Assembly (NCBI GenBank): GCA_964402555.1
Contig: CAYOCT010000001.1
Location: 204,049-268,048 of the forward strand
Direction: 5' to 3'
DNA from: an uncultured Nitrospiraceae bacterium
Lineage (GTDB): Bacteria; Hydrogenedentota; Hydrogenedentia; Hydrogenedentales; SLHB01
Length of the DNA stretch: 64,000 nucleotides
Both the position numbers and the translations under genes were made by a program. Of this stretch, positions 2,206 through 19,286 are shown in pieces (the stretch's first letter is position 1; the number at the start of each line of letters is the position of its first letter). Below the pieces are notes generated by a model that saw nothing but the letters and a program-made list of their open reading frames with translations, did not search any database and had not been told where the DNA came from.

Positions 2206-3090
2206 CTACCATTGGCCGTCGGCAAATGCTTGTTCTATCCTGGTGTCACGTCGAAAGTCCTTGAGAAAGAGTTCCTCGACGTAATCTATAGGGATGTGAA
2301 TGCCCATGTATCCCTCGACGCCCTTCTTGAATCCTACGTTTAGGCCAAGCGTCGGATCGATGACTTCTCCGGTTTCGTCGACAAGCCAGGCGTGAGCCTC
2401 GACGATGTCCAAGACTGAGACGAAGCCCTCGTGATACTGAAGAGCCGGAATAAGCTTTGCGATTCGCTGACAGTTTTCAAAGCACAGTTGGCTTTCGCAA
2501 TCGTAGAATCTTGCGAACTCTCTGGATAAGCCCCATTTGACCGTTCTGAACTCACGGGCCACGTCAAGAAAGTGATCGCAAAGACGAATATTCTCACGCT
2601 CGTCCTGAATCTTCTCCATAAGTAGAACGTAGTGCCTGATGCTCTGCAAGGGTTCATGAGGCATGGCTTGTGGAGCCAAGGCGCTCGCGAACCTGCTTCT
2701 CGGCACATAGACAAAGCTCTGCGGAGGCTTGAAGCCGCGCGACACTCTAGCCAGGCGCAAGGGAACCTCCAACGGAGTCACTTCACCAAGAACCAGGGCT
2801 ATGCCCCGCGCGTTGCCGTCGAAATAGTCCATGAACTGGGCACGTTTGATGCCGGCTTTTTTGTGGTATCGTTTCCAGATAGTTTCAGGCGATGCCTCAT
2901 GTGTGTCCAAGACTTGGCAAAGAGCCACGATCTTACGTATTGGCGAGGTCGCGTAGAGGGCGATCATCTTGACAGGGCGTGTCATGCGCGTCTTTCGAAA
3001 TTCCACTCGTTTTTCGCCCCGCAGGATGGCGTTCGCAAATTCCGGATGTATCGATAGCAGGGCTATATCTTTAGTTTCGTTCGAAGCCAT
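2206..3090 (-). CDS. ASCH (PUA-like) domain fused to a transglutaminase-like cysteine protease domain
   Basis: ASCH motif GxKxxExR present as RGEKRVEFR. C-terminal Cys...His...Asp pattern CFENC ... EAHAWLVDETGEVIDPT resembles the transglutaminase core. Confidence 0.55.
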   Translation of the reverse strand: MASNETKDIALLSIHPEFANAILRGEKRVEFRKTRMTRPVKMIALYATSPIRKIVALCQVLDTHEASPETIWKRYHKKAGIKRAQFMDYFDGNARGIALVLGEVTPLEVPLRLARVSRGFKPPQSFVYVPRSRFASALAPQAMPHEPLQSIRHYVLLMEKIQDERENIRLCDHFLDVAREFRTVKWGLSREFARFYDCESQLCFENCQRIAKLIPALQYHEGFVSVLDIVEAHAWLVDETGEVIDPTLGLNVGFKKGVEGYMGIHIPIDYVEELFLKDFRRDTRIEQAFADGQW

Positions 3091-4532
3091 TCTGCGCCTT
3101 TCTTGCTTATCGCCATGATGGATTGTGGCGGCTTCACGAACACGGCATTGTCTTGGGCCTCTTTCGTGCTGATCGGTGGCTGCAGCACTAAGGCCTGTCT
3201 GAACAAGATGACCAGAACATCCTTCTTAGAGAGTTCTTGGATATCGGCCAGACTATAGACGGTTCGCTTGGCCACAAGTCGAGTGATCTCTTCCCAAGAT
3301 TTTGAGACAACGGCACGTTCCACGACGCCAATTGCGATGAGACCTTGGTGCTGCTGGGACCGATAGAACACAATGACGCTGCCCGGCTCAATTGTCCGAA
3401 TCGAAGAATGGCAGAGGTACGCCTTGCGAATCGCGCTGCCGAATGGGTGCTCTCCATGGAAAAGATCACCTTGTACAGCGGACTCGGGGAAGAGTAGTCG
3501 CGCGAACCCCGGCTGAATGGGAACAAGAAAAGTTCGCCCCTCAGCCATCTCAAGATAGTGTGGGCCGTATCTTACGTGACGCTGAAGCCCATCAAGTTGA
3601 CCAGTCTCCGCAGCAACAACCTGCATAGGCTTCGCGAGAATCAGTTCGCCCAACTCTGTCTTAGAAGGCACGTCTTGAAATCCGCATTCTCGAAGAAGAT
3701 CCAATAGCTCGTCATGCTTTCGGAAGACGGTAACAAAGAGCCAATCGAACCAATTGCCACAGGAGTATTCGAAGACTGTTTTCAAGAGCAGTTCGCCGTA
3801 CTTCAATCCCTGAAAACGCTCTGCCACCTTGAACGAACACACTTTCAAGACCTTACCCGTCAAGGGCGCAGGTGGCTCGCTCTCGTGCTTGATAATGCAG
3901 AAAGCAGCAATTCCCTCCGAATCACCGGGCACGAACCAAGCCTGACGCTGCTGCCGCTTGCACTTCACGAGCCACTTGTCGAAATCCGCGTAATCCTGTC
4001 GGAAGGTCTCAAAGATAGTATCGTTGGCATCGAGAGCGTGAACAAGTGTAGCCTCCACGACGGGCGGCGGACTGGACGGCTTGGCCGCGAGGTCCTCAAT
4101 CACCTGGATGCTATCGAGCAGGCTGAGGGTACGGTCGGACAATCCAAGCCGCTTTGCTTTTCGTTGCAACCCCACGTCTTGCGTGACCAACCAATCGACG
4201 GCGTCAGCACGAAGGGCCGCCAGCATCAGATTGTCAATGTAATCGTTGCTGCCAGCTAACGCCTTTCCAACGATGCGTTCCACCTCGTCAGGGATAGCTG
4301 GCGGGTGCGGTAATTCGGCGTACTTCTTAAGCAACTGCACGCGAAGTGTGCGACGGTCTCCGTCCTTGTCTTTTGAAAGATCGACGAGGGAGGCCGGGTG
4401 CACGCATATCTGGTGTGCGTTTTCCGAAATAAGGCGAACGAAACGGACCGCGGGCTCTGTTGTCGCCTCAACATCGGCAGGCGATGTCGGTTCAAGCGGA
4501 ATCAGGATATTTGTGTCAACGAGGAATTTCAC
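3063..4532 (-). CDS. PIN-domain protein with a C-terminal alpha/beta domain of unknown function
   Basis: N-terminus MKFLVDTNILIP (PIN-like). GTG start preceded by AAGGTGG. Overlaps both neighbours. Confidence 0.5.
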   Translation of the reverse strand: MKFLVDTNILIPLEPTSPADVEATTEPAVRFVRLISENAHQICVHPASLVDLSKDKDGDRRTLRVQLLKKYAELPHPPAIPDEVERIVGKALAGSNDYIDNLMLAALRADAVDWLVTQDVGLQRKAKRLGLSDRTLSLLDSIQVIEDLAAKPSSPPPVVEATLVHALDANDTIFETFRQDYADFDKWLVKCKRQQRQAWFVPGDSEGIAAFCIIKHESEPPAPLTGKVLKVCSFKVAERFQGLKYGELLLKTVFEYSCGNWFDWLFVTVFRKHDELLDLLRECGFQDVPSKTELGELILAKPMQVVAAETGQLDGLQRHVRYGPHYLEMAEGRTFLVPIQPGFARLLFPESAVQGDLFHGEHPFGSAIRKAYLCHSSIRTIEPGSVIVFYRSQQHQGLIAIGVVERAVVSKSWEEITRLVAKRTVYSLADIQELSKKDVLVILFRQALVLQPPISTKEAQDNAVFVKPPQSIMAISKKGAEWLRTKLKI

Positions 4533-5151
4533 ACGCCACCTTGAACTTGCTGATGTCGATCACCCGCGCACCAAGAGCGATGAGATGAGAGTTGGAGGTG
4601 GATTCCATAGTGTAGAGCGTCTTGCGGGCCGCCAGGATTTCGCGGCACAGGGATTCGACTTCGCCGCCAAGTGAGGCGTGAGGAACGAGAACTTCATTGG
4701 CGATGGCTGCTATGAATGCATTGCGTTGACGGGCCGTATCTTTGGTCACTCGTCGCACGTTGGAGTCGAAAGGCGACAACAACAGTAAGCGGCCATCCGC
4801 AATTGGCGCGCGCCATTCGGTCGGAACGCGCATATCTTGGATGGATCGGGCGGGACACACGATCACGGCTTGTTTCCCGCGGAGCAGTAGGTCGAGGCAT
4901 TCCTTTTCCATGGGTGAGTGGAAGCCGCCGATCACCGTCACGCCGGCGTCACGCAGCGCGCGGGCGGTGTCGTAGGTCTTCAGGACGAGGTCTCCGGGGC
5001 ATTTCACGGAACAAAGCAGTCCCAGCATCTTCCCCTGAAGGATGGCGATGTTGCCAAGAGCATCAATGAATTCAGGGGCAGCCAAGCCCGCAGAACCCTT
5101 CAACGCGTGCGGGTAATGGGAATCGCCTTTCAGGATTCGCCGAGTCTCCAT
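4516..5151 (-). CDS. DprA/Smf-like SLOG-superfamily Rossmann-fold protein (short form)
   Basis: VIGGFHSPMEKE, AVIVCPARS and LLLLSPF segments resemble the DprA/LOG-type Rossmann core. Confidence 0.45.
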   Translation of the reverse strand: METRRILKGDSHYPHALKGSAGLAAPEFIDALGNIAILQGKMLGLLCSVKCPGDLVLKTYDTARALRDAGVTVIGGFHSPMEKECLDLLLRGKQAVIVCPARSIQDMRVPTEWRAPIADGRLLLLSPFDSNVRRVTKDTARQRNAFIAAIANEVLVPHASLGGEVESLCREILAARKTLYTMESTSNSHLIALGARVIDISKFKVACEIPR

Positions 5152-5307
5152 GATTCCTGCCTATCCGGAATGTGTCATCGTCATGTCGCGCCACCAGTTC
5201 GCGAAGACGGCAGATCAGATCCTGTGGGTGGCACATTATCGAGCGGCCTGATATCGAGCAGGCTGGCAATGAGGCTGCTCGATAATGCATCGAGGCTGCT
5301 CGATATC

Positions 5308-6954
5308 TTAAGTGGTTCGCACATAACGTCTTCCGCGTTTAGAACCTTCTGCTTTCAGCCACCCGGACTCAATGAGTCGTTGGGCTATCCGGTTCGCGCT
5401 AAACGGCGAGACGCTGAGAATCTCGCGAATATCCTGGTTCGTTACAAACCCTTTGTCAGCAAGAATAGGCACCAAAGCCACGTATTCAGGCGGTTTTTCC
5501 GCTGGCCCTCTCGACCCCGGAGATGCTACGAGCTCGTAAACACGGCCGCCTTTCTTGGGCAGTTTGACGACGCCTTTGCGGATAAGGTCTTTGATCTCGC
5601 GCGATGCCGTGTAGAGGTCCGCGCCCACCAAACCTTGGTAGTCGCGGCTGGTGAACGCATTCGAATGTTCTCTCGCATAGGCCAGGATACGTTTCTGATT
5701 GCCGTTCAGGTCCAGATGCCTGAGCTCCCCGAGCCACCGCAGCGTGTCCTGCCGGTACGCCACTGTGTTCCGGAGCGTGACAGTGAATATGGCGCCCGCT
5801 TCGAGCCGGATCTCCGGCGGATAGAGCCCCTCACGTTCCATCGCCTCGAAAATACGGGGGATTCCCTCGCCCTGTTCGCGCATATAGCCGAAGTCGGTCA
5901 ACACGCGAACAATCCGGGGATTCCGCGACGCGTGAATCCGTTCCCGTTTCAGCAGACGGTCCAGCGTGACAGGCTCAACCAGTTCCCCTGGACTCCGGAT
6001 CTCCAGCCGGTCGTCGAACATCCAGACCTCGATGCCCAGGCCCTCGTACCGGTAATCCCGGTGTGCCACGGCATTGACGATGGCTTCCTGCCAGGCAAAT
6101 GACGGGTACTCCAGCCGTTCCTCGAAGAAGAGGTCCACCAAACGTTGGCGTTCCCGCACGTGCGGCCGAATGGTCTCGTATGCCTTCTCGATGAGAAGCG
6201 CCAGCGGCGCCTCAATCCGTTCGCGCTTGACGATGTTGAGTTCGGCGCCCACCCGGCGCTCGGCCCCTTCGTACTTCACGAAGTCGATGCCACACCGTGG
6301 GTGCCACCGTCCGGGGTCCTTGCCAAAGAGCAGCAGCGCCGCAAACGTCAATGCCGTCTTACCGTTGCGCCCTTCCGTGAGGCGATATCGCGAAAGGAGG
6401 TCTTGTGGCGAAGCCTGAACCCCCAGACGTTCCGCCAACCTGTTCACGAGCGTCAGGTCGAGATCGCCAAGCGTCGCTTCAGAGACGAACCGCGTTTCGG
6501 TCACGCGCCGGCGTTTCCCTTCCTTCATCGCTTCGATGTCGCGAGCCGGAAACGGAACGTTCTCATCGTCAACGCGCAGCAGATACCGGCCGTCCGTCAG
6601 TTGATGGACATCCATACTCCAGTCCACCTCGAACACCAGCACCGGTTTGCCTTCCAGCTTACCTTCGTGGACCCGAGGGCGAAGCGACGGACGAACGTGC
6701 GTCTTGGGGGCCGATTTCAAGACCTTAAGCCGGTCTTCGGGGAAATCCGCGCCGGACACCGTGCCGTCATCTTCGACGCCGACAACCAGTGCCCCGCCAT
6801 CCGCGTTGGCCATGGCCGTCAAAGTCTCCGCTATGTCCCGCGCCACATCGCGGGCGGCCCGGCGTTTCGGCCTATGGCCTGACCGGTCAAGACAGCTCTT
6901 CCGTTCAAAAAACTGGCCTTCCGTCTGATGAACAATCCAACCAAGCTCGTTCAA
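5308..6954 (-). CDS. Schlafen-like AlbA_2 (divergent AAA) plus HATPase_c_4 putative regulator with C-terminal wHTH
   Basis: N-terminus MNELGWIVHQTEGQFFERKS. C-terminus RILAYAREHS...KKGGRVYELV is typical of this family. Confidence 0.7.
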   Translation of the reverse strand: MNELGWIVHQTEGQFFERKSCLDRSGHRPKRRAARDVARDIAETLTAMANADGGALVVGVEDDGTVSGADFPEDRLKVLKSAPKTHVRPSLRPRVHEGKLEGKPVLVFEVDWSMDVHQLTDGRYLLRVDDENVPFPARDIEAMKEGKRRRVTETRFVSEATLGDLDLTLVNRLAERLGVQASPQDLLSRYRLTEGRNGKTALTFAALLLFGKDPGRWHPRCGIDFVKYEGAERRVGAELNIVKRERIEAPLALLIEKAYETIRPHVRERQRLVDLFFEERLEYPSFAWQEAIVNAVAHRDYRYEGLGIEVWMFDDRLEIRSPGELVEPVTLDRLLKRERIHASRNPRIVRVLTDFGYMREQGEGIPRIFEAMEREGLYPPEIRLEAGAIFTVTLRNTVAYRQDTLRWLGELRHLDLNGNQKRILAYAREHSNAFTSRDYQGLVGADLYTASREIKDLIRKGVVKLPKKGGRVYELVASPGSRGPAEKPPEYVALVPILADKGFVTNQDIREILSVSPFSANRIAQRLIESGWLKAEGSKRGRRYVRTT

Positions 6955-6979: not shown

Positions 6980-8044
6980 TCACTTTCCTTCCCTTAATAC
7001 CTTCTCGTATTGACCAGGTTTCTTCATCTCTGCAATGAGGAACTTTTTCCATGATTCCGTGTAGACGTAGTCTCGATGGGCTTCATCGTATTGACAGAAC
7101 TGCGTATTCGTTGCTCGAGGATCGCCATTTCCCGTTCGGGGACGAACCTTATAGAATTGACAGGCGCGGACGTGGTGATAACTGGCGTTGAACTTCACGC
7201 TGACGCCCCCAACCTGTTGCACGATCGGTTCGACGGCCCTGCAGATGTCACCCGGCCTCAGACCTCCCGGATTAACTACCTGTGTGACAGATGGCTTAAT
7301 GAAGGCAACCAGTTTTTCGTACTTCGCCATCTCCTGCGGATTCGACGGGTCATATTTCACGAATTCCACGGCAATGTCGGCCTGCCCGGGATTGTTGGCC
7401 AGTTTCGGGATCAAGAAGACTTTGTAACTGTACCTCATGTCGTTGAGGATTTCCGTCCCGAGACCGGATCGAAACCGCGTGACGTACTGAGCCACGTTCT
7501 CTGAAAGCGAGCCGTGAAGTCGCGCAATCGCCTTTGCTTGGCCGTCTTCCCGCAAGTGCGAGAATTGAAGGGCTAGAGCGGGCGCTTCGTGAAGCATGTA
7601 TTTCGCCCCGAACTCGCGAAAGAGGGTGTCCTCGAAGTTGAAAAGAAGAGCCTGGCATTCCCCAAATATGCCCTGATCGAGCGCGGGCATCGATCGATGC
7701 TCAATCTTGTTCCTCAAACCAACGAAGAACTGGAGGTTCGCGCGTTCCGGCGGGTGGTTACTTGCGAAATACTGATCGATGCACTCGCCTAGTTCCCACG
7801 CCTTGTAGTCCCCGTCAATCTTCTTGTATCGACTAGGATGCAGTGGATCTTTGTAAAAAGGTTTGACCTTTCGAGCGAAGAAGATGGCGTGGAAGAGGCT
7901 GGTCCAGGCAATACACATAAGCACAATGAAGCCGCCGGACCTGAACTTCGTGGCTGGCTTGTTGTACACCTCCACTGCAAGCACCGCCGATTCGCGCGCT
8001 TTTTCCACGTGTTCCTTGACGACTGCCGGTAAACCTTTGGGCAT
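6980..8044 (-). CDS. Hypothetical protein (possibly DUF3644-like N-terminus)
   Basis: 354-aa ORF with uniform coding signal. No firm motif. Confidence 0.45.
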   Translation of the reverse strand: MPKGLPAVVKEHVEKARESAVLAVEVYNKPATKFRSGGFIVLMCIAWTSLFHAIFFARKVKPFYKDPLHPSRYKKIDGDYKAWELGECIDQYFASNHPPERANLQFFVGLRNKIEHRSMPALDQGIFGECQALLFNFEDTLFREFGAKYMLHEAPALALQFSHLREDGQAKAIARLHGSLSENVAQYVTRFRSGLGTEILNDMRYSYKVFLIPKLANNPGQADIAVEFVKYDPSNPQEMAKYEKLVAFIKPSVTQVVNPGGLRPGDICRAVEPIVQQVGGVSVKFNASYHHVRACQFYKVRPRTGNGDPRATNTQFCQYDEAHRDYVYTESWKKFLIAEMKKPGQYEKVLREGK

Positions 8045-8290
8045 GCCTTACGCTCCCGCACCCGGGCTATTACCATTGGAAAAGACTTTCCGAAGATAGA
8101 TGTTCGCAGAAACAAAGGTCCGAGGATCGCGTTTCATCCTCCGTATCCGTGTCGTTTTTGCGGCCGTCATTAACGTAGCCTCTTGTCCCATCAGGTGCTT
8201 GATGTTGTAGTTGATGATACGGTCCAGTTCTTTGTCCGTAAAATCATTGTGTTCGACAAAAATGTAGTCGATTCTATCGAGCCCAAAAAC

Positions 8291-10258
8291 TCAATACCTT
8301 CTTGTTCCCCTTTCGTGCAAATTAATACTGGAAACCAAATTCCCGGTAAACCCCCAGCTTCTTCCCAGTTCCGCAACCGCTAAAGTCCATTCCTCGTCGG
8401 CGGGTAGCTCCTCATCGCGCCAAGTGAGGCTATAGAAGACTCCTGCGCATATTTCTGCGATCAGTTCCCTGAATTCTTCTTCGGAAAAGTTCCTGATTTT
8501 GTCGCGGTTGATCCAAATTTTATGTCCGCTTTCTTCAATCGCAGCAGTCTGGAACTCCCCAGGCGGCAAAAAGTCTATCTGTCGGAATCCCTCCGGAAGG
8601 ACAGGCGGCACAAAACCTACGTATTGATAATCAGACAGTATCATTCTGGGGCCACGACTCCCCCAATAATACAAAAGCCCTCGGAGCACATCGTCTTTCA
8701 AAGACGCAATTGTAGAACAGATCCACCCCAAGTAAGTCTTGTCCTGGTCACTATGGATGTTACCATAGAACCGGAGCATGAACTTATCGCCATAATTAAT
8801 CGAAATCTCCGTGTCCATGCAGCGCTCGCTGCTGTATTGCGTCCCTTCTCCTGCGGCTTCCGGCTCTAGCTCGAAATCTGGCCGCGCGGCATCGTCGTAC
8901 ATGCCAAGATATGGCTTGAGATATCGTTCACCGTAGACTTCGTTCAGCAGCATGGCGTGTTCCGGACTTGTGCTGCTCTCGATCTCGTCCAAATGTCCGA
9001 GGAAATCGTCCTTGTTCCGAAGAGAATAGATGCGCGTTCCATAATCACTGAGGACATCACGCATGAGGCTGTCGCTCAGTATTCCATGGCTTTCCTTGTC
9101 CAAAAACATCGCGTCGCAATACGGCAGGAATGTTTCAATGAAGCGGACGTCGTTGTGAAGACCTCTGGTCGGCAGACGCCTCTGGCCGGCGTGTGCGGCC
9201 CTGTTCGCGACAGTGGCCCAGATCATGGAACCGATTTTCACAAAGGGGAGCGAGGCAAAATGCTCAGACTGGAGAAACTCCCAGGCCTTCGGGAGCCACT
9301 CGTCCTCGCCAAGTCCCTTCTTCATCAAAGCGTCGCGGAACCGCATCATCACGCCGGCCTCATGTGTAGGCAGAAAAGCTGCGGCGGCACTCAGACTAAC
9401 TTGTTGAGTGCTGATTATCTCCGCTTGTGCCTTGGCCATCTCGCTGAATTGCCGAAATAGGCCTCGGAGATAGTTCTTGCCGGCGCCACCTGTTTCTTCA
9501 CGTACCCAAAAATCGAACGACTTATCCTGATCGCGCTGCCACTGCTCGAATACGGTTCGAAGCTCTTCGGCAACAGCGTCACGTGCCTCGCGCAGTTCCT
9601 TGATAGCGTCTGGAGACCATCGAAAACTCGATGAGACATTGAAGTGGTCTGTCCACCCCGTGCGATCCCCATGCAGAAAATCATCCCTGCCAAATCTGCT
9701 CTTCTGAGGTCCATGCCCAGCCAGCCAGTGTTCGAACGCCTCCGTAATGAGCCAACTGTGAATCGTCTCCGTGTCAAACCACGTTACGCCATAGCTAAGC
9801 AGCTCGTATGTCCCCTTCAGCGCATTGTATAAACTGCTGGTAGCCGACTCCGAATCGTGGAGATCAGAACTAGGGCACACCAGTAACTGCTTTTTCCCCA
9901 ACAGGTCAAGGCGCGCGAATACCTCTCTGAAGAAGGCCTCATTAGGATTTCGTCCGTGCTGCTTTGTCGCAGAATTCAGCGCGAACATCATGTTGCTTAT
10001 CACGAATTGGTCGAGGTACAGGACCTTCTTGTCAAGCTTCGGCAAACGGGTTGGCTCGTACCACTCCGGATGGGTCGGGTAAAGGCAATTTCGACACCGT
10101 CGGGAGTACTGGTGACCGGCAATGCAAATTACCCCAAAGACATCCTCGCCGCACTTCGGACACCGGATATAAGGAGGATTTACAAAATCGTTCGGCCGAA
10201 TGGTTACATATGCGGCGTCATCTGACGGTCCGCCTGTTACTTCTTCCGGGGGTGTCAT
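8291..10258 (-). CDS. Hypothetical 655-aa protein with N-terminal Zn-ribbon
   Basis: CPKCGEDV...C...CRNC cluster. Start overlaps the methyltransferase stop by 4 bp. Confidence 0.55.
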   Translation of the reverse strand: MTPPEEVTGGPSDDAAYVTIRPNDFVNPPYIRCPKCGEDVFGVICIAGHQYSRRCRNCLYPTHPEWYEPTRLPKLDKKVLYLDQFVISNMMFALNSATKQHGRNPNEAFFREVFARLDLLGKKQLLVCPSSDLHDSESATSSLYNALKGTYELLSYGVTWFDTETIHSWLITEAFEHWLAGHGPQKSRFGRDDFLHGDRTGWTDHFNVSSSFRWSPDAIKELREARDAVAEELRTVFEQWQRDQDKSFDFWVREETGGAGKNYLRGLFRQFSEMAKAQAEIISTQQVSLSAAAAFLPTHEAGVMMRFRDALMKKGLGEDEWLPKAWEFLQSEHFASLPFVKIGSMIWATVANRAAHAGQRRLPTRGLHNDVRFIETFLPYCDAMFLDKESHGILSDSLMRDVLSDYGTRIYSLRNKDDFLGHLDEIESSTSPEHAMLLNEVYGERYLKPYLGMYDDAARPDFELEPEAAGEGTQYSSERCMDTEISINYGDKFMLRFYGNIHSDQDKTYLGWICSTIASLKDDVLRGLLYYWGSRGPRMILSDYQYVGFVPPVLPEGFRQIDFLPPGEFQTAAIEESGHKIWINRDKIRNFSEEEFRELIAEICAGVFYSLTWRDEELPADEEWTLAVAELGRSWGFTGNLVSSINLHERGTRRY

Positions 10259-13200
10259 CCGCCTTCCCCCTCAGCGTCATCATCGTCAGCTGTATCCTGG
10301 CCCAGCCGAAATTTGATGTCGAAGTTGATGATGAAATCCACTTCCTCATCATTGAAGCCAAAGTGGTCGGCCAAGATGACATCTATCTTGTCGATATCTG
10401 ACTTAGACAAGCGCGGGTAGAATTCGTCGTATTCTACGACACCTGTTCTTTGGTAAGGAATCCGTCTCCGCGCTCGGTTCTTACGGAGACTCTTCATCAG
10501 ATTTTGTCCGGCCGCGCGCAACGGCCCCCCGTACGACTTCGCCAAGGCAGGCAAGTCTAGAGGAAAATCGAGGATAATTTCCCTGCCGCAGTGATATACG
10601 TCTGAGTACGTCACAAACCACTGATAGAACAAGCTGCTGTTGAGGATGGCAACCAACGCGGCCTGTTGTGCCTCAGCGGCAGCGCCAAAGATCTTGTAGT
10701 CTTCGGAACGTTTGATGCCGTCCCTTTCGCTGGAGAAATAAGGCACAAAATCCATCGCCTTAACAAAATGGGCTACTATTCTGTGACTGTACACTTCATG
10801 ATGTGACCTCTCGCTCACAAACAGGCCGAGAGACCTTTTCTCAGAACACAGCTTCGAGAGGAGCGAGAGATGAGTATCCGAATAAATCTTCGGTCTAAGA
10901 CTGACTCGGGTAAGGTGACTGCCGGATTGTGTGTACTGAATTAATGGAAAGAGCGAATCACGACCATCGGCGTACCAACGCTGGAAACGTGTGCTGAATT
11001 CAGTTGGCGAAAGCAAGTTCTTTGCTTGCAGCAAAATCGCCAGGCGGAATTTTACGCCGTTGAACAAAATAGACGGATGAGCGTCGCCTGAGTAAAAGCT
11101 TGCATGCGTCAGCAAGTGGCTGTTCACCCAAGTATCCCGTAGTGGTCGCATGCGTTCGGTAGCCACACAGCTTACCGGGACAATCATTCCAAACTTGCCG
11201 CGAGCGGATAACAATGCATACGACCGCTCGCAGATCACAGTGTAGACATTTCCACATGAAAGAGTTGCGTAACTGGCCGGAATCGGCCGGTAACCTTGAA
11301 CTTTGCTCCATTCTACATAGGGTGGATTGCCAATGATAACGTCAAAACCGCCGCCGTTCATGATGCTGTAGAACTCGATGAACCAGTGAAAGGGATGATA
11401 TGAATTCACCCACTTGCGGAACTCGGTTTCATAGGCCTTCTTCGGCCTGACGCTTTCGACTCCAATTCCATATTCTTCCGCAAGATAACGATTCAGTTCG
11501 TTCTCGAGATCTTGAAGGCGCCTCTGAAGCTCCAGCTTGTGTTCCGTGGGTACCGATGTATCACCTTCGGTCTGACGCTTTCGGAATGCATCAAAAGTTT
11601 GTTGCAAGTCAGCTGCCTTAACAGTAATTGTCTCCATCTTGTCGTCAAAGTCGAACTTGCTCTTGACGGTCTTTTCGACTTCGAGGTAGGTGGCATAGCC
11701 AATGAGCGTGTTTCCGGAGCGGATGTTGAAATCTATGTCCGGCAGGGGCTCAATGCCAAGGTTTTCTCGTACGGGATCTGGATTGACTTGTGCGGCGAGC
11801 TTGAGGAAAAGGCGGAGCTTACAGATTTCGACGGCCTCGTCCATGATATCGACACCGTAGAGGTTGTTGATCACTATGGACTTGAGGACGAAATAGCGTC
11901 GGTTAGGGTGTTTGTCCATTTCGTCCAGCACCTCGCGGAAATCGCTGAGCTTCTTCGGGCTGTGCTTCCGTTCGGAGTGCTCAAGGTCTTCGAGTAATCC
12001 CTGCATGCCGTCGAGGCAGGCGTTGTAGAGCGGTTCGAGGATGTTGAGCGCGGCGAAGAGGAAGGCGCCTGACCCGCATGTGGGGTCGAGAATCGAGATG
12101 CGTGCAAGCGCCTTCCAGAACGCGCGGACGAGTTCCGGTCCTTCGCTGTTGACTATGGCGTCATCGGCAAACTGCTCGATGTCGAGGTTCAGGGTAACGA
12201 AGTCGTTGATTGCCTGGATTCCGCCAGCGGCCAGCTTCTCTCGCAACTCGAGACACCGTTTCCGTCGTTCGGCATACTCACGCCAGGTTTCCGTAGGCAA
12301 CGCGAGATCTTCGCCATCAGGACCGGGGACGCTGGCTTGTCCCAGGTTGTACTGCCTGTTGAACATCCGTTTCTTCGGGTCGGCCATCCCCTCGCGAACG
12401 AACTCGGGCAACGTGGAATCCGGAATAATCGTTCCATCAGCGTTGACGACGCCAGAACGCACGGCCGGATAGATGTAGCGGTCGGCGTCATCACGAAGCA
12501 AGCGCCAGATGCCACCGTCCGGCCTAAATGCGATGGGACATTCCTTCTGTGCGGCGTCGAACAGATACGGGATGATGGTATTGCGACCGATATAGCCGGT
12601 GATGTCCTCCTTCGTGTAATAGGCGCCCATCTGCTTCTGGTTGATGTACTTCTCGAAGATGTAGCCGAGAACGTCCGGATTGATTTCGTTGTCGGCACGC
12701 AACGGGCGTTCGTCGAGGTGCCAGGTGTAGCTGTCGAAGAAGTCGAAGATGGCCACGAATGCTTCATCGGGGATGTCGATGCCGCTATACTGCCGCTCAA
12801 GCTCGTGCACATCGAACAGGCCACCGTTCAGGTAAGGCACTCTGCCCAAGAGCGCTTCAAGGTCGCGCGCGCGGTCTTTGGCCGGCTTGCCAAGTCCTTC
12901 GTGGAACAGACGCAGCAGGAAGAAACGATAGAATGAAAGGAATTTGCCCTTGCCTCGGCGTTCCTGGACCATCTTGAGGCGGTTGCGGAGGTAATCGGGA
13001 TCGCCGTCGAGGAATCCACGCTTCTGGATGAAGTAGACAAACATCATCCGGTTGAGCATGAGCGAGGCGTACCAGTCACGATCCGTCCGCTCGTCAATGC
13101 CTTGGATGAATTTGAGGAAAGTCTGGTGCTCTTTCTTGAAGCGGTCATAGAAGCGTTTCGTGACGCGCTCGACATCCAGCGCCGAACGTGTACGCGCCGT

Positions 13201-13653
13201 CACGTCGGTGATGGTGAGGCGCTCTTCTTCCTCAAGCTCGAATGCCAGCCCTTGAAGTTTCTCGACGAGCGCCTGCCCGGTCTGATCCGCACGATACGTA
13301 TGTTCGCGGCACGCGGCTCCTTTGCCTGCCTGGCGCTTGACCCATTGCCAGATCTGGATCGTCTGCTTTGCATCGGTGAAGACGATCAGGTGCTCGTGGG
13401 CGGACTTGCGAGCCTGTTGTTCAATCTTGCGGCGAAGGGGATACGGTGGCGCCGCACCGTCCATGCTGGGACTACACACGTAGACGACCATGCCGCATTT
13501 CTCGGCGAGCGGTTTCAGAACGTAATCGGCGCCGGCAACGGAAACAACAAGAGGCTGCGCCGCATAGCAGTTCCAACCAAGTTCCTCAATCAATAGCCCG
13601 GTGAGGTCAAACTCTCTGAGGCGTTTGCGGACGTTCTCGACACTCACAGGCAT
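10255..13653 (-). CDS. N6-adenine DNA methyltransferase, Eco57I/PglX/type IIG-like, 1132 aa
   Basis: Motif I ILDPTCGSGAFL, motif IV VIIGNPPYV, and the conserved YLNGGLFD segment. Confidence 0.8.
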   Translation of the reverse strand: MPVSVENVRKRLREFDLTGLLIEELGWNCYAAQPLVVSVAGADYVLKPLAEKCGMVVYVCSPSMDGAAPPYPLRRKIEQQARKSAHEHLIVFTDAKQTIQIWQWVKRQAGKGAACREHTYRADQTGQALVEKLQGLAFELEEEERLTITDVTARTRSALDVERVTKRFYDRFKKEHQTFLKFIQGIDERTDRDWYASLMLNRMMFVYFIQKRGFLDGDPDYLRNRLKMVQERRGKGKFLSFYRFFLLRLFHEGLGKPAKDRARDLEALLGRVPYLNGGLFDVHELERQYSGIDIPDEAFVAIFDFFDSYTWHLDERPLRADNEINPDVLGYIFEKYINQKQMGAYYTKEDITGYIGRNTIIPYLFDAAQKECPIAFRPDGGIWRLLRDDADRYIYPAVRSGVVNADGTIIPDSTLPEFVREGMADPKKRMFNRQYNLGQASVPGPDGEDLALPTETWREYAERRKRCLELREKLAAGGIQAINDFVTLNLDIEQFADDAIVNSEGPELVRAFWKALARISILDPTCGSGAFLFAALNILEPLYNACLDGMQGLLEDLEHSERKHSPKKLSDFREVLDEMDKHPNRRYFVLKSIVINNLYGVDIMDEAVEICKLRLFLKLAAQVNPDPVRENLGIEPLPDIDFNIRSGNTLIGYATYLEVEKTVKSKFDFDDKMETITVKAADLQQTFDAFRKRQTEGDTSVPTEHKLELQRRLQDLENELNRYLAEEYGIGVESVRPKKAYETEFRKWVNSYHPFHWFIEFYSIMNGGGFDVIIGNPPYVEWSKVQGYRPIPASYATLSCGNVYTVICERSYALLSARGKFGMIVPVSCVATERMRPLRDTWVNSHLLTHASFYSGDAHPSILFNGVKFRLAILLQAKNLLSPTEFSTRFQRWYADGRDSLFPLIQYTQSGSHLTRVSLRPKIYSDTHLSLLSKLCSEKRSLGLFVSERSHHEVYSHRIVAHFVKAMDFVPYFSSERDGIKRSEDYKIFGAAAEAQQAALVAILNSSLFYQWFVTYSDVYHCGREIILDFPLDLPALAKSYGGPLRAAGQNLMKSLRKNRARRRIPYQRTGVVEYDEFYPRLSKSDIDKIDVILADHFGFNDEEVDFIINFDIKFRLGQDTADDDDAEGEGG

Positions 13654-16600
13654 GCATCATCTCCCTTGAACAGCCCCATGGAACAAATGATCCGCGGTTC
13701 GTGCGTTTGCGCTTCTTCCTCAACAAGGCACAGACGGCCTTCTTCGCGCAAAACCATGACCAATTCGGCCAGCTTCTGGTCGTCAATACCGAGTCGCAGT
13801 TGACGATTCAGGGCATCGGTTGCCACCTGACGGAGCGGGTATCGATAGATCTCATCAATGACGCGGTAAAGTTCGGGCGTCTCGAAAAGCGTTCCCTTGA
13901 TCTCCTCGGCATGCCGTTTGAGCCGTTCGTAAGTTCTAAACCGCGCGCCGCTGGGCCGGCCCAATTGCCCGCCGACCTGGCGTTCTTCCGTAGCGATATG
14001 CTGGATTGCTTCCCGCACGAGGGGGTGATGCCTGGGATTACGCGGAATAGCCGGAGTTTCGAGAGGGCATTCGGCGATTCGGAGGATTTCAAACTGGGAT
14101 TCTGTGATGCTGGCGCCGCCTGTGTCCACGTAAGCGAGGGCGTCGTTGTCTTCCGCCGTACGGGCATAGACGAGCACGCCTTCCGGCTTGCGTTCGGTCG
14201 GGGCGTGCGCGCGAGTTGAATAGGCCACGTCCGGCAGTTCGGGCACGATCTTTTCCAGTTCCGGATTGGAGTCAATGGCGTTCTTCCAGATCTGGTATGC
14301 GTATGACGCCAAGTCGACTTCCGCGTCATCCTCGCCGTCAAGGATACCGGCCTTTTCGGTAAACAGGTCGCGGACGCTCTGCTCGTTGTTATCGTCCTCG
14401 AAGAACGACTCATCCGTACCGACCACTTCGGCATTTTCGCGAAGTCTGCTGCGAACCCTGGAACGCAAGCGAATGATGCGCTCGACTCCCTCCGCGGGAA
14501 GGAATGAGTAACAGAGTATGTCCTCCGCTTTCTGACCGATACGGTCCACGCGGCCGGCGCGCTGGATCAGGCGAATGATAGCCCACGGTAGATCAAAGTT
14601 AACGACTATGGCGCAATCTTGCAGGTTTTGGCCTTCGCTCAAGATATCCGTGGCAACCAGCACGCGCAATTCCTGGGCCGGCGATATCCGGTCTCGCTTG
14701 TTGTTGCTGACCGGACTGAACCGCCACGCCAGTTCGGTTGGGTTCGCGGAATCGGAGGTTGCGCCCGCCACACCGTCTATACCCCTCGCCTTAAGCTGAG
14801 TCTCAAGATAGCGGACCGTATCCGCGAACTGTGTGAAGATTAGGACCTTCTCCATGGCATGTCGTTCGGCAAGCAGATCGACCAACGCCTGCAATTTGGC
14901 ATCGCGCTCTCGGTCCCATTCTCCTGTCCGGGCCAGCAGTTTGAGTAAGGCTTCCGCGTCCGCGCGCAGATGCTTGGCGAGTGCTTCAGTGAACAAGCCA
15001 GGCCTAATCCATTTGAAAGACTTGCGATGCTCTGTTTCGTAATCAACGTATACTTCTGCCGCACGACGCCGGAAATCAGCTTCATTGCGAAGCGTCGTCC
15101 CTGGGACAGAAGCGATAGGCTGGTCGTCGTTGTTGTCGGCGTCATCGGCAAACAGGTCGCTCGTGGCTTCTTCGGCATCCTCGTCAGTCATCCGAGTATC
15201 AAGCATTTCGGAAGTCTGTGAACCCAACGGCAGAGGCAGGCCGTTCTCGATGGCATGCAGGTAAACAAAATTACGCAGAATGTGCCGCTCGACGGACTGA
15301 ACGAAAGCCATGCCGCAGCTTTCAAGGCGTTTGAACAGGTTCGTGCGGCAGAATCCCATGAGCCGTTTCCCGGCGCGAGACAAGTCTTGCAGCACTCGCG
15401 CCTCGGCCTGGGTGGGCGGTTGCTCAGGAGTCGGCACTTCATAGTTGCCCAAGCCATAACGGGGCAAGTACAGTCCGTTGATGATATCCACAACGGGCTT
15501 GGCGTAAAGCTGGGCGTACTGATCGTTCTTGTCTTTGTCGTTGATTGTAAACTTCACCGTCCTTGGGAGACGTTCCGGGAAATATGAGCGCGTGCCGTCC
15601 TCAAACGTCAGATAACACCTGCCATTATCCGCGTCGACGGTAGCGTAATTGTCCTTGATGAAGCTGCGGGTCCGGCGCACGAGGTAGAGGCGCATCAAAT
15701 CGCGCCAGTCGTCGGCATGCTCGCTCTTCTCGAACGCGGAAAGCGACCTGACCGAACACTGATGCCGCCGGATGAATTCGGTCTCGCTGATTTGACGCAA
15801 TAACGCTTCCGGCCGGATTCCGATGTCACGATCTTCTTCAACGAACAGGCGCAGCTGGCTGGAGAGATCGAGGTAGGTCTTGTTGTACGGCGTGGCGGTC
15901 AGCAGGATGCACTTGCTGTCGTTCGCGCGGATGTAGTCCTGGATGACGCGGTAGCGGCGGCCTTCACGATTGCGCAGGTTGTGGCTCTCGTCCAAGATGA
16001 TGAGACGATAACGCCGGAGGTCAGGCAATTGTCTGATGACGCGGCTAATCGAGAGCACGCGTCCGCGAAGGCGATACTGTTCCCGGTAGTCTTCCCACAT
16101 GGAGACGAGATTCTTGGGACAGATGATTAGGGTTTCGAGATCGTGGTCATCCTCGAAGATGCGCGCAAGTGCGGTGGCCATGAGCGTCTTGCCGAGACCG
16201 ACGACGTCACCCACGAGCACGCCGTTTCGGCGCAGCAGATGATGCGCGGCGATCTTCACGGCAGCGACCTGGTAGTCGAAAAGCTTGTTGCCGAAATCCT
16301 TCGGAATGCGGAACTCAGACAGGCCGGAACGCGCCTCCCGCGACAGGTGATAGGCGATCTTGATGTAGATTTGATAAGGCGGAATCGGTTCCTCGCGAGC
16401 CCAGCTTTCGTCGATAATCGCGACCAACTCATTCGAGACGTCGATGCAGAAGCGGTCGTTCCAGCGATCCTCAAACCACTTCGCGAGTTTCTGGCACGCG
16501 TCGAGGTCCATGACGTCGATGTTGAGCTCGCCCTGATTCACGAGGCCGGCGAGCGTCAAGTTGCTGCTGCCCAGATATCCCACGATGGGGTTGATCGGGT

Positions 16601-17048
16601 CGGGACGGAAGAGCAGGTAAAGCTTGGCGTGAAGCGGATGCCGCAGGAAGAGCTTCACCACGACCTTCTTGGCGCGGATTTGCGCCACGAGGCGGCGAAG
16701 CGCTTCCTCATCTTCATTGGTGGGTGTGCCAAACGTAAGTTGCTGGCGAAATTCCTGCGCAAGCTGCTTCTTGAGGCGTGCCGCGGTAGCGTTGTCTATT
16801 TCGGCGCCGCCGTCGACGACGCTCATTGCTTCGCGTAACTGGTCTTGCGGTAAACGCTGCATTCCCACGAGAAGCCGGCAGCATTGCCCCGCATCGCTTC
16901 CTGCCCATTTCTCGACCTGGGTGTGAAGCTGCTTCCATCCGCGCAGATTGAAATAGCCGACGCAAAAGTCGGCCCGGTCGGAACGCGCGAGGGTTTCCTG
17001 CAGTGCCTTGGATAGATTGGCCTCGATGTTGTCGAAAACTCTAGGCAT
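13644..17048 (-). CDS. PLD-family nuclease domain fused to an SNF2-family helicase, 1134 aa
   Basis: HxK PLD motif HPLHAKLYLL. Helicase motifs GLGKT and DESHNLRN plus a C-terminal helicase block (NFDLPW). Overlaps the methyltransferase start by 10 nt. Confidence 0.8.
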   Translation of the reverse strand: MPRVFDNIEANLSKALQETLARSDRADFCVGYFNLRGWKQLHTQVEKWAGSDAGQCCRLLVGMQRLPQDQLREAMSVVDGGAEIDNATAARLKKQLAQEFRQQLTFGTPTNEDEEALRRLVAQIRAKKVVVKLFLRHPLHAKLYLLFRPDPINPIVGYLGSSNLTLAGLVNQGELNIDVMDLDACQKLAKWFEDRWNDRFCIDVSNELVAIIDESWAREEPIPPYQIYIKIAYHLSREARSGLSEFRIPKDFGNKLFDYQVAAVKIAAHHLLRRNGVLVGDVVGLGKTLMATALARIFEDDHDLETLIICPKNLVSMWEDYREQYRLRGRVLSISRVIRQLPDLRRYRLIILDESHNLRNREGRRYRVIQDYIRANDSKCILLTATPYNKTYLDLSSQLRLFVEEDRDIGIRPEALLRQISETEFIRRHQCSVRSLSAFEKSEHADDWRDLMRLYLVRRTRSFIKDNYATVDADNGRCYLTFEDGTRSYFPERLPRTVKFTINDKDKNDQYAQLYAKPVVDIINGLYLPRYGLGNYEVPTPEQPPTQAEARVLQDLSRAGKRLMGFCRTNLFKRLESCGMAFVQSVERHILRNFVYLHAIENGLPLPLGSQTSEMLDTRMTDEDAEEATSDLFADDADNNDDQPIASVPGTTLRNEADFRRRAAEVYVDYETEHRKSFKWIRPGLFTEALAKHLRADAEALLKLLARTGEWDRERDAKLQALVDLLAERHAMEKVLIFTQFADTVRYLETQLKARGIDGVAGATSDSANPTELAWRFSPVSNNKRDRISPAQELRVLVATDILSEGQNLQDCAIVVNFDLPWAIIRLIQRAGRVDRIGQKAEDILCYSFLPAEGVERIIRLRSRVRSRLRENAEVVGTDESFFEDDNNEQSVRDLFTEKAGILDGEDDAEVDLASYAYQIWKNAIDSNPELEKIVPELPDVAYSTRAHAPTERKPEGVLVYARTAEDNDALAYVDTGGASITESQFEILRIAECPLETPAIPRNPRHHPLVREAIQHIATEERQVGGQLGRPSGARFRTYERLKRHAEEIKGTLFETPELYRVIDEIYRYPLRQVATDALNRQLRLGIDDQKLAELVMVLREEGRLCLVEEEAQTHEPRIICSMGLFKGDDACL

Positions 17049-17103
17049 TATGACTGGTTCCCTTCAGCTGCCACTCTCATTAATGTCTTCTATCCCCGCG
17101 ATT

Positions 17104-17286
17104 TCAGTCCCGTTTTCCTTCTTTCAACCACGTGTCAAGGGCATCTCGGTGAAACCGCCAGTGCTTGCCGACCTTCTGACACGGAATCCGGCCTTCCTGG
17201 GCCAGCCTGTACAAGGACGATTTCGGTATCCTCAAGTACCGGCAGACTTCTTCGATCGTCATGACTTCTGGCTCTTTGCGAACCAT
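17104..17286 (-). CDS. Small HTH DNA-binding protein (AlpA/excisionase/MerR-like)
   Basis: TIEEVCRYLRIPKSSLYRLAQEGRIPCQKVGKHWRF. Sits 55 bp upstream of the PLD-SNF2 gene. Confidence 0.65.
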   Translation of the reverse strand: MVRKEPEVMTIEEVCRYLRIPKSSLYRLAQEGRIPCQKVGKHWRFHRDALDTWLKEGKRD

Positions 17287-17890: not shown

Positions 17891-18265
17891 TTACGAGCGC
17901 TGCTCATGAACAGTTCCTTTGCCTTTCCCTTTCGGGGAGATCTTGTCTTCCTGAGCCAACCGTTTCAAGAGACGGGTCGCCTGAAACAGACTGATTCTGC
18001 ACAGGTCTGTCACGTCGGCGCGCTTGATGGAACCGTGCTTGGCAAGATAGGCCAAGACCATTCGCTCCTGTTGGATGACATCGAATCCGGCCTGCCGGAC
18101 GTAGGCTGTCCATCTTTGACTCCGCTTTCAAGACTCTCAGCCGGTATTCGAAATAGTCCGCGTCGGAGACTTTGCCGTCATCTTCGATGGCTGTTTGCGA
18201 ATCATGCGGTCTTCGTTGAATCAAGTGGCGCAGAACCTTGTCGTCTCCCCGCCGTTTCAATCTGA
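17891..18265 (-). pseudogene. Frameshifted remnant of a Schlafen-like regulator C-terminus (wHTH)
   Basis: Minus-strand frame gives ...QQERMVLAYLAKHGSIKRADVTDLCRISLFQATRLLKRLAQEDKISPKGKGKGTVHEQRS*, homologous to the C-terminus of the 5308..6954 product. The upstream part is in another frame. Confidence 0.5.
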
Positions 18266-18344
18266 AACCCCCAGGCCCTTCTTGCCGCTTTGTGTATGGA
18301 ACGAAGCCAGGACATTCCTTGGCATCAACGACTGGAGGAAGCAA

Positions 18345-19286
18345 ATGGCCCGTCGTCTGGACAAACACGAGATCGAATTGTTGCGTCAACTTGCAGACTT
18401 TAGGATGCTGACGCTCACGCAGACCAGCGTTCTGAGTTCCAAAAGCCACCGCACGGCGCGGCGCAGAATGAAAGAACTGGTAGACCATGGCTCTGCCGAA
18501 CTTCTGCCCGTATCAATCTCGCAGCGGCGTGGTCGTCCGGAGGGCGTCTTCGGCGTCAGCCAAGAAGGCCTTGCCGCGCTCCGCTCTGAGAACGTTTTGC
18601 CAAAGGCAGCCGAGTTCAGTCAGGTTGGCGGCAAAGCGCTCATCGGCCAGCATGGCCATCAGCTTCTTCTGAATTGGTGCCGGATTCATCTCGATCATCT
18701 AACCAGGACTCTTCCACGGCTCGACTGTGCCTTTCTCTCGTCGAAGTCACCGTTTGATCTGGATCGCGACTCGGGCGGTCCGGTCGTTCGGGATTTCGTG
18801 CCTGTGTCAGAAGGGAGCGAGCCGGACGAGAAATGTCATTTTATCCCTGACGGCGTCTTCATCCTCACCGACTCCGAGATAGCCAAGTCATTTCTCTTTT
18901 TCTTGGAGGTGGACTTGGGTTCGGAGCCCCTCGATAGTTCAGAATCGGGACGGGCCGCCATCGTCCGGAAGATTCAGACGTACCAGTCGTACTTCGAGTG
19001 CGAACGGTACAAACGATACGAAGAAACCTGGCAAGTCAAGCTCAATGGGTTTCGTATGCTCTTCGTGACGTCCACTTCCAGTCGGATGACGTCGCTATGC
19101 CGAGTGATTCAGTCCATGCCTCCGCCTCCGTCTGATTTCATCTGGGCGACCTGCCAAGACAGCCTGTTCGCGGAAGGAATTTCCGGAAACATCTGGGCTC
19201 GTGGCGGCAAGCATGATCTCGCCCGACAATCCATCCTGGGCGGCTTAGCCATGAAGGCCCCGATCCCGGAACTCGCGGTCTCGTAG
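18345..19286 (+). CDS. Replication-relaxation family protein
   Basis: MARRLDKHEIELLRQLADFRMLTLTQ N-terminus. RBS GGAGGAAG precedes the ATG at 18345. Confidence 0.7.
   Translation: MARRLDKHEIELLRQLADFRMLTLTQTSVLSSKSHRTARRRMKELVDHGSAELLPVSISQRRGRPEGVFGVSQEGLAALRSENVLPKAAEFSQVGGKALIGQHGHQLLLNWCRIHLDHLTRTLPRLDCAFLSSKSPFDLDRDSGGPVVRDFVPVSEGSEPDEKCHFIPDGVFILTDSEIAKSFLFFLEVDLGSEPLDSSESGRAAIVRKIQTYQSYFECERYKRYEETWQVKLNGFRMLFVTSTSSRMTSLCRVIQSMPPPPSDFIWATCQDSLFAEGISGNIWARGGKHDLARQSILGGLAMKAPIPELAVS

Follow-up and report, generated by a model that had tools for sequence, protein, structure and literature searches.

Here we report a gene module in a 64,000-nucleotide stretch of DNA (hereafter the window) from an uncultured Nitrospiraceae bacterium (assembly GCA_964402555.1, contig CAYOCT010000001.1, positions 204,049 to 268,048). 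The locus probably encodes a helicase-dependent, restriction-modification-like module, an uncharacterised variant built on a two-gene core. The first core gene (13644-17048, minus strand) encodes a 1134-amino-acid (aa) protein in which a phospholipase D (PLD) domain of the HKD type is fused to an SNF2 helicase, and the second (10255-13653, minus strand) encodes a 1132-aa N6-adenine methyltransferase (MTase) resembling PglX and Eco57I. The strict pairing of a nuclease-less MTase that bears a target recognition domain (TRD) with a nuclease-motor fusion follows the same principle as restriction of types I, III and ISP. A preliminary description of the window had grouped five minus-strand open reading frames (ORFs), running from a small helix-turn-helix (HTH) gene through the core pair to genes for a 655-aa and a 354-aa protein, into one operon, and had read it either as a reduced DISARM variant or as an unusual type III/ISP-like system with a PLD nuclease standing in for the usual endonuclease. 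All five ORFs lie where it placed them, the overlap it saw between helicase and MTase genes measures 10 nt, and its PLD, SNF2, Eco57I-type MTase and HTH calls are all backed by Pfam, PADLOC and NCBIfam. The second of its readings is the best supported of the alternatives it offered; its five-gene operon is a conserved core plus passengers, not a single system.

A search with the helicase, keeping one genome per species, gave 80 loci at 52-77% identity. These span approximately 20 phyla, including Nitrospirota, Acidobacteriota, Planctomycetota, Verrucomicrobiota, Chloroflexota, Latescibacterota and Desulfobacterota, together with Bacteroidota, Proteobacteria, Actinomycetota and several candidate phyla, and the family is also found on 33 sequenced plasmids, with Cyanobacteria among the hosts. 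When neighbours were scored by tblastn with the window proteins, over a visible flank of ∼6.5 kb, the MTase lay immediately 3′ of the helicase in all 71 loci with enough room to hold it; in the nine loci without it the sequence ends less than 900 nt past the helicase. Homology of both proteins extends over their full length, the helicase-to-MTase synteny is direct, and the junctions are short or overlapping, with DUF1016 nucleases or ORF6N proteins sitting between the two genes in some loci. Clustering of 1068 neighbour ORFs returned only three recurrent families, namely the helicase, the MTase and a DprA-like protein of ∼200 aa. The PLD(HKD)-SNF2 protein and the MTase are thus the always-together core across the 80 loci. 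RefSeq names the two simply “helicase-related protein” and “DNA methyltransferase”. The pair has been noticed but is uncharacterised, since a “type II RM CDS with an immediately upstream PLD + SNF CDS” is listed as a context of programmed inversions (PMC9881135). No name for the trio of HKD-SNF2 protein, MTase and DprA-like protein was found in the searchable literature or in PADLOC-DB 2.0, NCBIfam 20 and Pfam 2025, the releases used for domain matches here; the PADLOC scan covered 22 ORFs of the window.

Pfam matches in the 1134-aa protein (PLDc_2, RE_NgoFVII, SNF2-rel_dom and Helicase_C) delimit a single-HKD PLD domain at residues ∼1-200 and an SNF2-type ATPase at ∼250-880, followed by a conserved C-terminal region, and its top PADLOC match is “HKD+Snf2” (C3a139, 159 bits). 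HAKLY...GSSNLT, GLGKT and DESH can be read directly in its translation. Across 65 aligned sequences the helicase is conserved throughout, with at least 90% conservation of the HKD motif (LHAKLYL...GSSNLT), of GLGKT, DESH and QRxGRxxRxGQ, and more broadly of SNF2 motifs I, II, III and VI and the C-terminal ∼250 aa. Reading frames of more than 1100 codons with hidden Markov model (HMM) scores of up to 1083 bits, as seen for this pair, are far above chance. Proteins with a single HKD motif, such as Nuc, BfiI and SauUSI, pair two copies to form one active site. Because the MTase has no conserved PD-(D/E)xK triad, the HKD domain is the likely nuclease of the system, and we infer that the PLD-SNF2 protein is its translocase-nuclease (R-like) subunit.

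The partner protein matches Eco57I (83.7 bits) and MmeI_Mtase in Pfam. Its motif I, DPTCGSGAF (residues 523-531), precedes motif IV, NPPY (776-779), with the TRD at the C-terminus, which is the gamma-class order, and both DPxCGSGAF and NPPY are at least 90% conserved across the family alignment; the YLNGGLFD segment that the preliminary description had picked out together with NPPY is at residues 274-281. An alignment-based AlphaFold2 (AF2) model, with a predicted local distance difference test (pLDDT) score of 79.7, has the BREX proteins PglX/BrxX (8q56, 8c45, 9ewz) as its top Foldseek matches over the full length (E ∼1e-11; for PglX 1.5e-11 over ∼1100 aligned columns), with CamA, M.TaqI, MmeI (5hr4) and DrdV (7lo5) lower in the list and MmeI trailing at 4e-6. 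The earlier label “Eco57I/PglX-like” therefore describes it well, Eco57I being found in Pfam and PglX being the best structural match. The first 125 residues of the model adopt an alpha-beta-beta-beta-alpha-beta topology like that of a restriction endonuclease (REase). However, no D...(D/E)xK motif is conserved among 52 family members, the would-be catalytic positions being variable (T, S, A, D or R at 43; E, Q or H at 51; K or L at 52); E87 is the sole invariant residue, and H88 and D94 are mostly conserved. On the sequences and the model, the PADLOC name REase_MTase_IIG, under which model PDLC03628 matches the protein at 1083 bits over its full length, would best be taken as a family label and not as a sign of an intrinsic nuclease.

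The C-terminal 300 aa of the MTase are its least conserved part: 100-aa blocks there are 18-31% identical to the window protein, compared with 52-63% over residues 100-400. GC content falls in parallel, from 0.555-0.58 over positions 11501-13500 to 0.50-0.51 over 10001-11500, the 3′ third that encodes the TRD, and remains low across the adjoining 655-aa gene (0.49-0.54). The variability of the TRD and the drop in GC fit a swappable target-recognition domain, and the latter also fits recombinational replacement of the TRD together with downstream cargo. Taken as a whole, the protein appears to be the modification and specificity subunit. A TRD shufflon was considered and rejected, as the only minus-strand partial MTase copy, in related locus L016, proved to be an N-terminus, belonging to a second gene and not to a cassette; a repeat search of the window found no long inverted repeats.

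We propose that the variable C-terminal domain of the MTase would recognise a short site, probably an asymmetric one, and that the enzyme would methylate host DNA, marking it as self. Unmodified sites would license the HKD(PLD)-SNF2 protein, recruited there as the restriction arm, a step that supposes physical coupling of MTase and helicase. The SNF2 motor would translocate on double-stranded DNA using ATP, and two single-HKD domains brought together would cut the DNA. A DprA-like protein encoded downstream may bind single-stranded DNA (ssDNA) or nucleotides and may hold the motor-nuclease back or set it off, which is the weakest step of the scheme and is drawn by analogy with ShosA and PsyrA, and a small HTH protein may act as an optional controller of transcription.

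One family member lends outside support to this scheme. Slr6050, encoded on pSYSX of Synechocystis sp. PCC 6803, is 46% identical to the window MTase over its full length, and lies in a locus (L172, 34696-56145) where a helicase 51.6% identical to that of the window is followed by a VapBC pair and then by slr6050. It is thus a true member with the helicase upstream, but differs in having VapBC inserted, no DprA-like gene within 5 kb and a divergent TRD, so that its motif is probably different. Slr6050 has tentatively been equated with M.Ssp6803IV, which modifies GA(m6A)GGC, and its knockout never segregates (PMC6105098). Such a failure to segregate would be predicted if host DNA left without methylation came under attack from the helicase-nuclease encoded next door, and so fits a lethal restriction partner; the link is drawn here, as the helicase is not discussed in PMC6105098. 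The same pSYSX locus has a DUF2513 gene past the MTase and, alongside on the opposite strand, a ubiquitin-like conjugation cluster (multiubiquitin, E2/UBC, ThiF and DUF6527).

Several considerations weigh against a restriction module of this kind. Restriction itself, the interaction of MTase and helicase, and cleavage by the HKD domain are all suggested for this family by the logic of its domains, and PglX-like MTases also serve BREX, a system that leaves DNA undegraded, so this module, too, may act without cleavage. For Slr6050, the assignment of GA(m6A)GGC is itself tentative, having been made by elimination, and non-segregation could instead reflect an essential epigenetic role. Finally, the DprA-like gene is present in about half of the loci that extend at least 4 kb past the MTase (26 of ∼48), and on pNPUN01 and pPRO1, as on pSYSX, there is none within 5 kb; this protein may be accessory rather than core.

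The DprA/Smf-like gene of the window (4516-5151, minus strand; 211 aa) lies outside the interval covered by the preliminary description. Its product matches DNA_processg_A in Pfam (36 bits) and PsyrA in PADLOC (76 bits), and the family profile matches DprA structures and the DprA-like antitoxin ShosA (9vzo, E 5e-4), with a weak TIGR00732 match in 25 of 26 members. Related loci carry it in 26 of 81 cases, a lower bound given the ∼6.5 kb of visible flank, always co-oriented and 0-5.4 kb 3′ of the MTase. It abuts the MTase gene in two loci (3 bp in L020, 0 bp in L039) and in the others follows at 0.4-5.4 kb, with one to seven mostly co-oriented genes between. In a reciprocal test the 211-aa family profile was run against metagenome contigs. 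Where more than 6 kb of 5′ sequence was available, a co-oriented MTase preceded the gene in 11 of 14 loci; with 3-6 kb it did so in 10 of 17. Six metagenome loci (L109, L114, L121, L129, L158 and L171) retain only the first 41-81 helicase codons upstream of an intact DprA-like gene, and L129 additionally keeps the last 50 MTase codons, out of frame. These look like recurrent deletion scars of the core that left passengers and DprA-like gene behind, with an assembly artefact being possible. The 211-aa gene is the conserved downstream boundary of a cargo slot, and by analogy its product may regulate the system as a protein that binds ssDNA or nucleotides.

Directly past the stop codon of the next upstream gene, which encodes a Schlafen-like protein, and ahead of the DprA-like gene lies a repeat array (5234-5305), with four copies of about TATCGAGCNGCC, two direct and two inverted, at 60-150 nt 5′ of the DprA-like start. 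From its sequence the array looks operator-like. ATTAGC-type arrays occupy the same spot in L153, L157, L159 and L163, and L157 and L163 also have a Schlafen homologue. A conserved recombination or operator site 5′ of the DprA-like gene was nonetheless rejected, with half-site arrays in 17 of 99 loci against 6 of 66 and 7 of 82 in controls, which is no significant enrichment.

The interval from the MTase to the DprA-like gene is an insertion hotspot, so called because it holds variable defence-type genes. In other loci it is filled with AAA_21/AAA_15 ABC-type ATPases (PtuA/AriA/GajA/AbiL-like), some with DUF4276, or with RhuM (PDC-S05), Schlafen AlbA_2, DUF3800, AbiEi/AbiEii, Fic, NYN, HNH, DUF4238 or MTaX1 genes. 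The window slot holds three unrelated passengers, all on the minus strand: the 655-aa Zn-ribbon protein (8291-10258), a 354-aa DUF3644 (HEPN-type) protein (6980-8044) and a 548-aa protein with Schlafen AlbA_2, HATPase_c_4 and a C-terminal winged HTH in Pfam (5308-6954). The 354-aa protein scores 182 bits against DUF3644 and 437 bits against PADLOC PDC-S19, and a homologue directly follows the MTase in only two of the 80 loci (L045 and L075). The preprint 10.1101/2024.01.29.577857 describes DUF3644 as a HEPN domain and places the DUF3644-containing HEC-08 among candidates embedded in Hma; together with PMC11232893, it documents embedded defence genes for Hma, where they lie within helicase-MTase operons, and for BREX, DISARM and type I restriction-modification systems. 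PDC-S19 is listed by PADLOC as a single-gene candidate, and both this passenger family and that of the 655-aa protein stand alone elsewhere. The Schlafen-like protein is the commonest passenger of the slot, with homologues in or beside the operon in seven genome loci and 5′ of the DprA-like gene in 10 metagenome loci, and it may sometimes be fused onto the core MTase. Among MTase relatives with extra domains, P0175 carries PF04326 (Schlafen AlbA_2), and the 1341-aa partner on Nostoc punctiforme pNPUN01 (L173, 14078-18103) is named “RNA-binding domain-containing protein” in RefSeq.

The 655-aa protein consists of an N-terminal CxxC...CxxC Zn ribbon, a ∼430-aa alpha/beta-plus-helical core, modelled by AF2 with pLDDT above 90 over residues 20-455, and a ∼200-aa low-confidence C-terminal extension that is added to the ∼430 aa typical of the family. 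The Zn ribbon noted in the preliminary description is borne out by C33, C36, C55 and C58, each at least 90% conserved in 67 homologues, in which several acidic or polar positions are conserved as well; a PIN-like reading of D83, E137, D382 and D387 is an unsupported guess. We found no match to the protein in Pfam, PADLOC, NCBIfam or PDB sequences, and no significant Foldseek match of its model in PDB or BFVD (best PDB E 0.26; VapC E 2.4). An HMM comparison of the 67 homologues against Pfam at E≤1 gave only weak Zn-ribbon models and no DUF1998 signal, in line with the preliminary remark that the protein was not obviously DUF1998. A role as DrmB/DUF1998 or as a PIN nuclease was accordingly rejected, the former also since the protein is absent from related loci, being found in none of 80 helicase-anchored and none of 80 DprA-like-anchored loci. 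The family is uncharacterised; in a set of 1.84 billion clusters at 50% identity it has 1409 representatives at E≤1e-10, and its members stand alone in variable contexts that include integrases, toxin-antitoxin modules and ATPases. One locus (L088, 1-9386) encodes a complete Hma system, made up of an SNF2+NOV_C helicase, a DUF1156 MTase and DUF499, and a 461-aa homologue of the core lies 10 nt past its DUF499 gene. This links the family a second time, and independently, to a defence operon of the helicase-MTase kind. We regard the 655-aa protein as a candidate stand-alone defence gene, and not as a conserved part of the system.

Upstream of the core, the 60-aa HTH protein (17104-17286, minus strand) matches Pfam HTH_17 at 69 bits and TIGR01764 at 66.7 bits, the latter above its cut-off. 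Of 72 related loci, 7 have a homologue 4-97 bp 5′ of the helicase, and this small HTH_17/excisionase-family protein probably serves as an optional regulator of operon transcription. Just 5′ of the HTH gene lie a ribosome-binding site and the best promoter-like site (TTGACA-18-CAGAAT, 17350-17321); the promoter and terminator scans did not rise above shuffled expectation.

The co-oriented minus-strand run continues 3′ of the DprA-like gene with PDC-M11A (489 aa, weak PIN and GNAT matches, 562 bits) and PDC-M11B (294 aa, ASCH, 133 bits) at 2206-4532, which together are a complete PADLOC two-gene candidate. Further out, hallmarks of mobile elements surround the locus, namely an IS21 IstB gene (5-943), an LmuB/mad3-like SMC_N ORF (1150-2169), a Replic_Relax gene (18195-19286) and HerA/DUF87-type ATPases (mad8-like) at 24494-26593 and 61493-63970. 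A 1304-aa AAA_11/AAA_12 helicase (Upf1-like, superfamily 1; 52014-55928, minus strand) matches Mokosh MkoA at 329 bits and may be a separate Mokosh-type defence gene. Rich in defence genes and mobile elements, this region probably belongs to an element that is integrated or carried on a plasmid. No tRNA genes were found in the window and no near-identical DNA match to the locus among plasmids.

If the two-gene module works as proposed, it represents a common but unnamed ATP-dependent restriction class that is currently split in annotation or mislabelled as type IIG, and it would explain why Slr6050 cannot be deleted from Synechocystis 6803. A bolder version, which we hold to be doubtful, is that the trio is a distinct, phylum-spanning restriction system whose cargo bay captures and co-expresses defence genes, that the 655-aa protein founds a new defence family (∼1400 clusters at 50% identity), and that the DprA-like protein senses ssDNA and puts a brake on the helicase-nuclease, in the manner of ShosA and PsyrA with their toxins. 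On a practical level, new defence genes could be sought by guilt of embedding between the boundaries set by the MTase and the DprA-like gene, with the 655-aa family as one immediate candidate, and annotation pipelines should allow for genes that are tightly co-oriented and overlap by 4 bp without belonging to one system.

The last point applies to the locus itself. That the genes from HTH to 354-aa protein are one co-evolved, five-component system is suggested by their co-orientation, by the 4-nt overlap of the MTase and 655-aa ORFs (exactly as the preliminary description had it), by short gaps (55 nt between HTH and helicase genes, and 246 nt between the 655-aa and 354-aa genes, where 247 had been given) and by the lack of significant terminators between these genes in the scan. 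We consider it hardly credible, however, given that the 655-aa protein recurs in none of 160 related loci, the DUF3644 protein in 2 of 80 and the HTH protein in 7 of 72, that the passenger families are autonomous elsewhere and that other loci have unrelated genes in this slot; co-transcription or functional synergy of the five in the source host is possible. It is also unlikely that the 1132-aa protein is a self-sufficient type IIG enzyme with the PLD-SNF2 protein as an independent neighbour. It does combine MTase and TRD in one Eco57I-family polypeptide with Eco57I and MmeI_Mtase matches in Pfam, it matches the type IIG model over its full length, and its N-terminus has REase-like topology with E87 invariant and H88 and D94 mostly conserved. 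Against this stand motifs that do not suggest an active PD-(D/E)xK site, a closest structure, PglX, that is nuclease-less, and the invariable adjacency to the HKD-SNF2 gene, which in ∼20 phyla would not persist between independent neighbours.

Known multi-gene systems share parts with the locus, and membership of DISARM, BREX, Hma/BREX-related (BR) or MADS systems was rejected for want of their defining components. Class 1 DISARM also comprises an SNF2 helicase (DrmD), an N6-adenine MTase (DrmMI) and an optional PLD protein (DrmC), and a reduced form would have a fused DrmC-like PLD and the 655-aa protein in the place of DrmA/DrmB. This first reading of the preliminary description does not stand and is highly improbable. 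The matches to DrmD (104 and 134 bits, the latter NF038317 at 133.7) cover only residues 688-855 in the helicase C-lobe, far under the cut-off of 610, and that to PADLOC DrmMI (67 bits) a partial region, so that both reflect generic cores. The defining pair of DrmA (YprA helicase) and DrmB (DUF1998) is missing: the only DrmA match in the 22 window ORFs is one of 56.6 bits to the generic helicase C-lobe of the PLD-SNF2 protein, with none in the 80 loci, agreeing with the earlier note of no DrmA-sized helicase; Pfam and PADLOC found no DrmB/DUF1998 in the 655-aa protein or any neighbour; and the 80 loci contain no further conserved family. Exclusion of phage without classical cleavage, by a BREX-related or Hma-type (BR type-2) system, is likewise quite improbable. 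The MTase does share with PglX/BrxX, its nearest structure, a large gamma-class N6-adenine MTase, a non-catalytic N-terminal domain and a C-terminal specificity domain, but PglX NCBIfam models give at most 55 bits against cut-offs of 400-900, so that the fold is PglX-like without being an equivalog, and the locus has no PglZ, BrxC, BrxB, BrxA or BrxL; neither PglZ nor BrxC was found in the window ORFs by Pfam or PADLOC, or as a conserved family in the 80 loci. BR type-2 systems, in which an N-terminal HKD plus Swi2/Snf2 helicase and an N6-MTase have been proposed as an RM-like effector (PMC12839542), are closer in architecture, and Hma/BR operons are also hotspots for embedded defence genes (PMC12839542; PMC11232893). 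However, the DUF499 AAA+ ATPase and DUF3780 present in 98% of type-2 BR (PMC12839542) have no Pfam match in any scanned window ORF and are not among the recurrent families of the 80 loci, the HmaA model matches only the helicase C-lobe (69 bits), and the Hma locus L088 has a DUF1156-type MTase instead of an Eco57I/PglX-like one. As for MADS, the HTH protein scores 64 bits against MAD1 (NF047737), under the cut-off of 80, and the rest of the window has only weak mad3- and mad8-like ATPase matches.

The individual proteins have relatives in simpler systems. The single-HKD PLD nuclease domain (RE_NgoFVII) is shared with SauUSI and with BfiI/NgoAVII, and dimerises to cut. SauUSI also fuses an HKD PLD to a superfamily 2 (SF2) ATPase; it is a type IV, modification-dependent enzyme that carries a reader domain itself and lacks a partner MTase. 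PsyrA and ShosA share their DprA Rossmann domain with the 211-aa protein. The partner of PsyrA is a helicase-type toxin. ShosA is an ssDNA-binding protein that neutralises the toxin paired with it (PMC11961720). The locus differs from ShosTA and PsyrTA in having no phosphoribosyltransferase (ShosT) or RecQ-like (PsyrT) partner, and the 211-aa protein is without SAM and C-terminal domains. The functional model that we favour, a helicase-dependent restriction module, is closest to type ISP (LlaGI, LlaBIII) and type III (Res + Mod) enzymes, which likewise bring together an SF2 translocase powered by ATP, a nuclease, an N6-adenine MTase and a TRD for a short asymmetric site. In both types the nuclease arm depends on the specificity/MTase arm. 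The present system differs in splitting these functions over two genes, in the order nuclease-motor then MTase-TRD, where type ISP uses a single polypeptide, so that the likeness to the latter is a functional analogy only. Its motor is of SNF2 type, and its nuclease is an N-terminal single-HKD PLD domain where those enzymes have Mrr or PD-(D/E)xK domains, C-terminal in type III. Compared with type III, moreover, the MTase is of the PglX/Eco57I-like gamma class by motif order, not a beta-class Mod with an internal TRD. A DprA-like third gene, frequent here, sets the system apart from both types. If our reading is correct, a PLD/SNF2 solution is thereby added to the type I/III/ISP theme.

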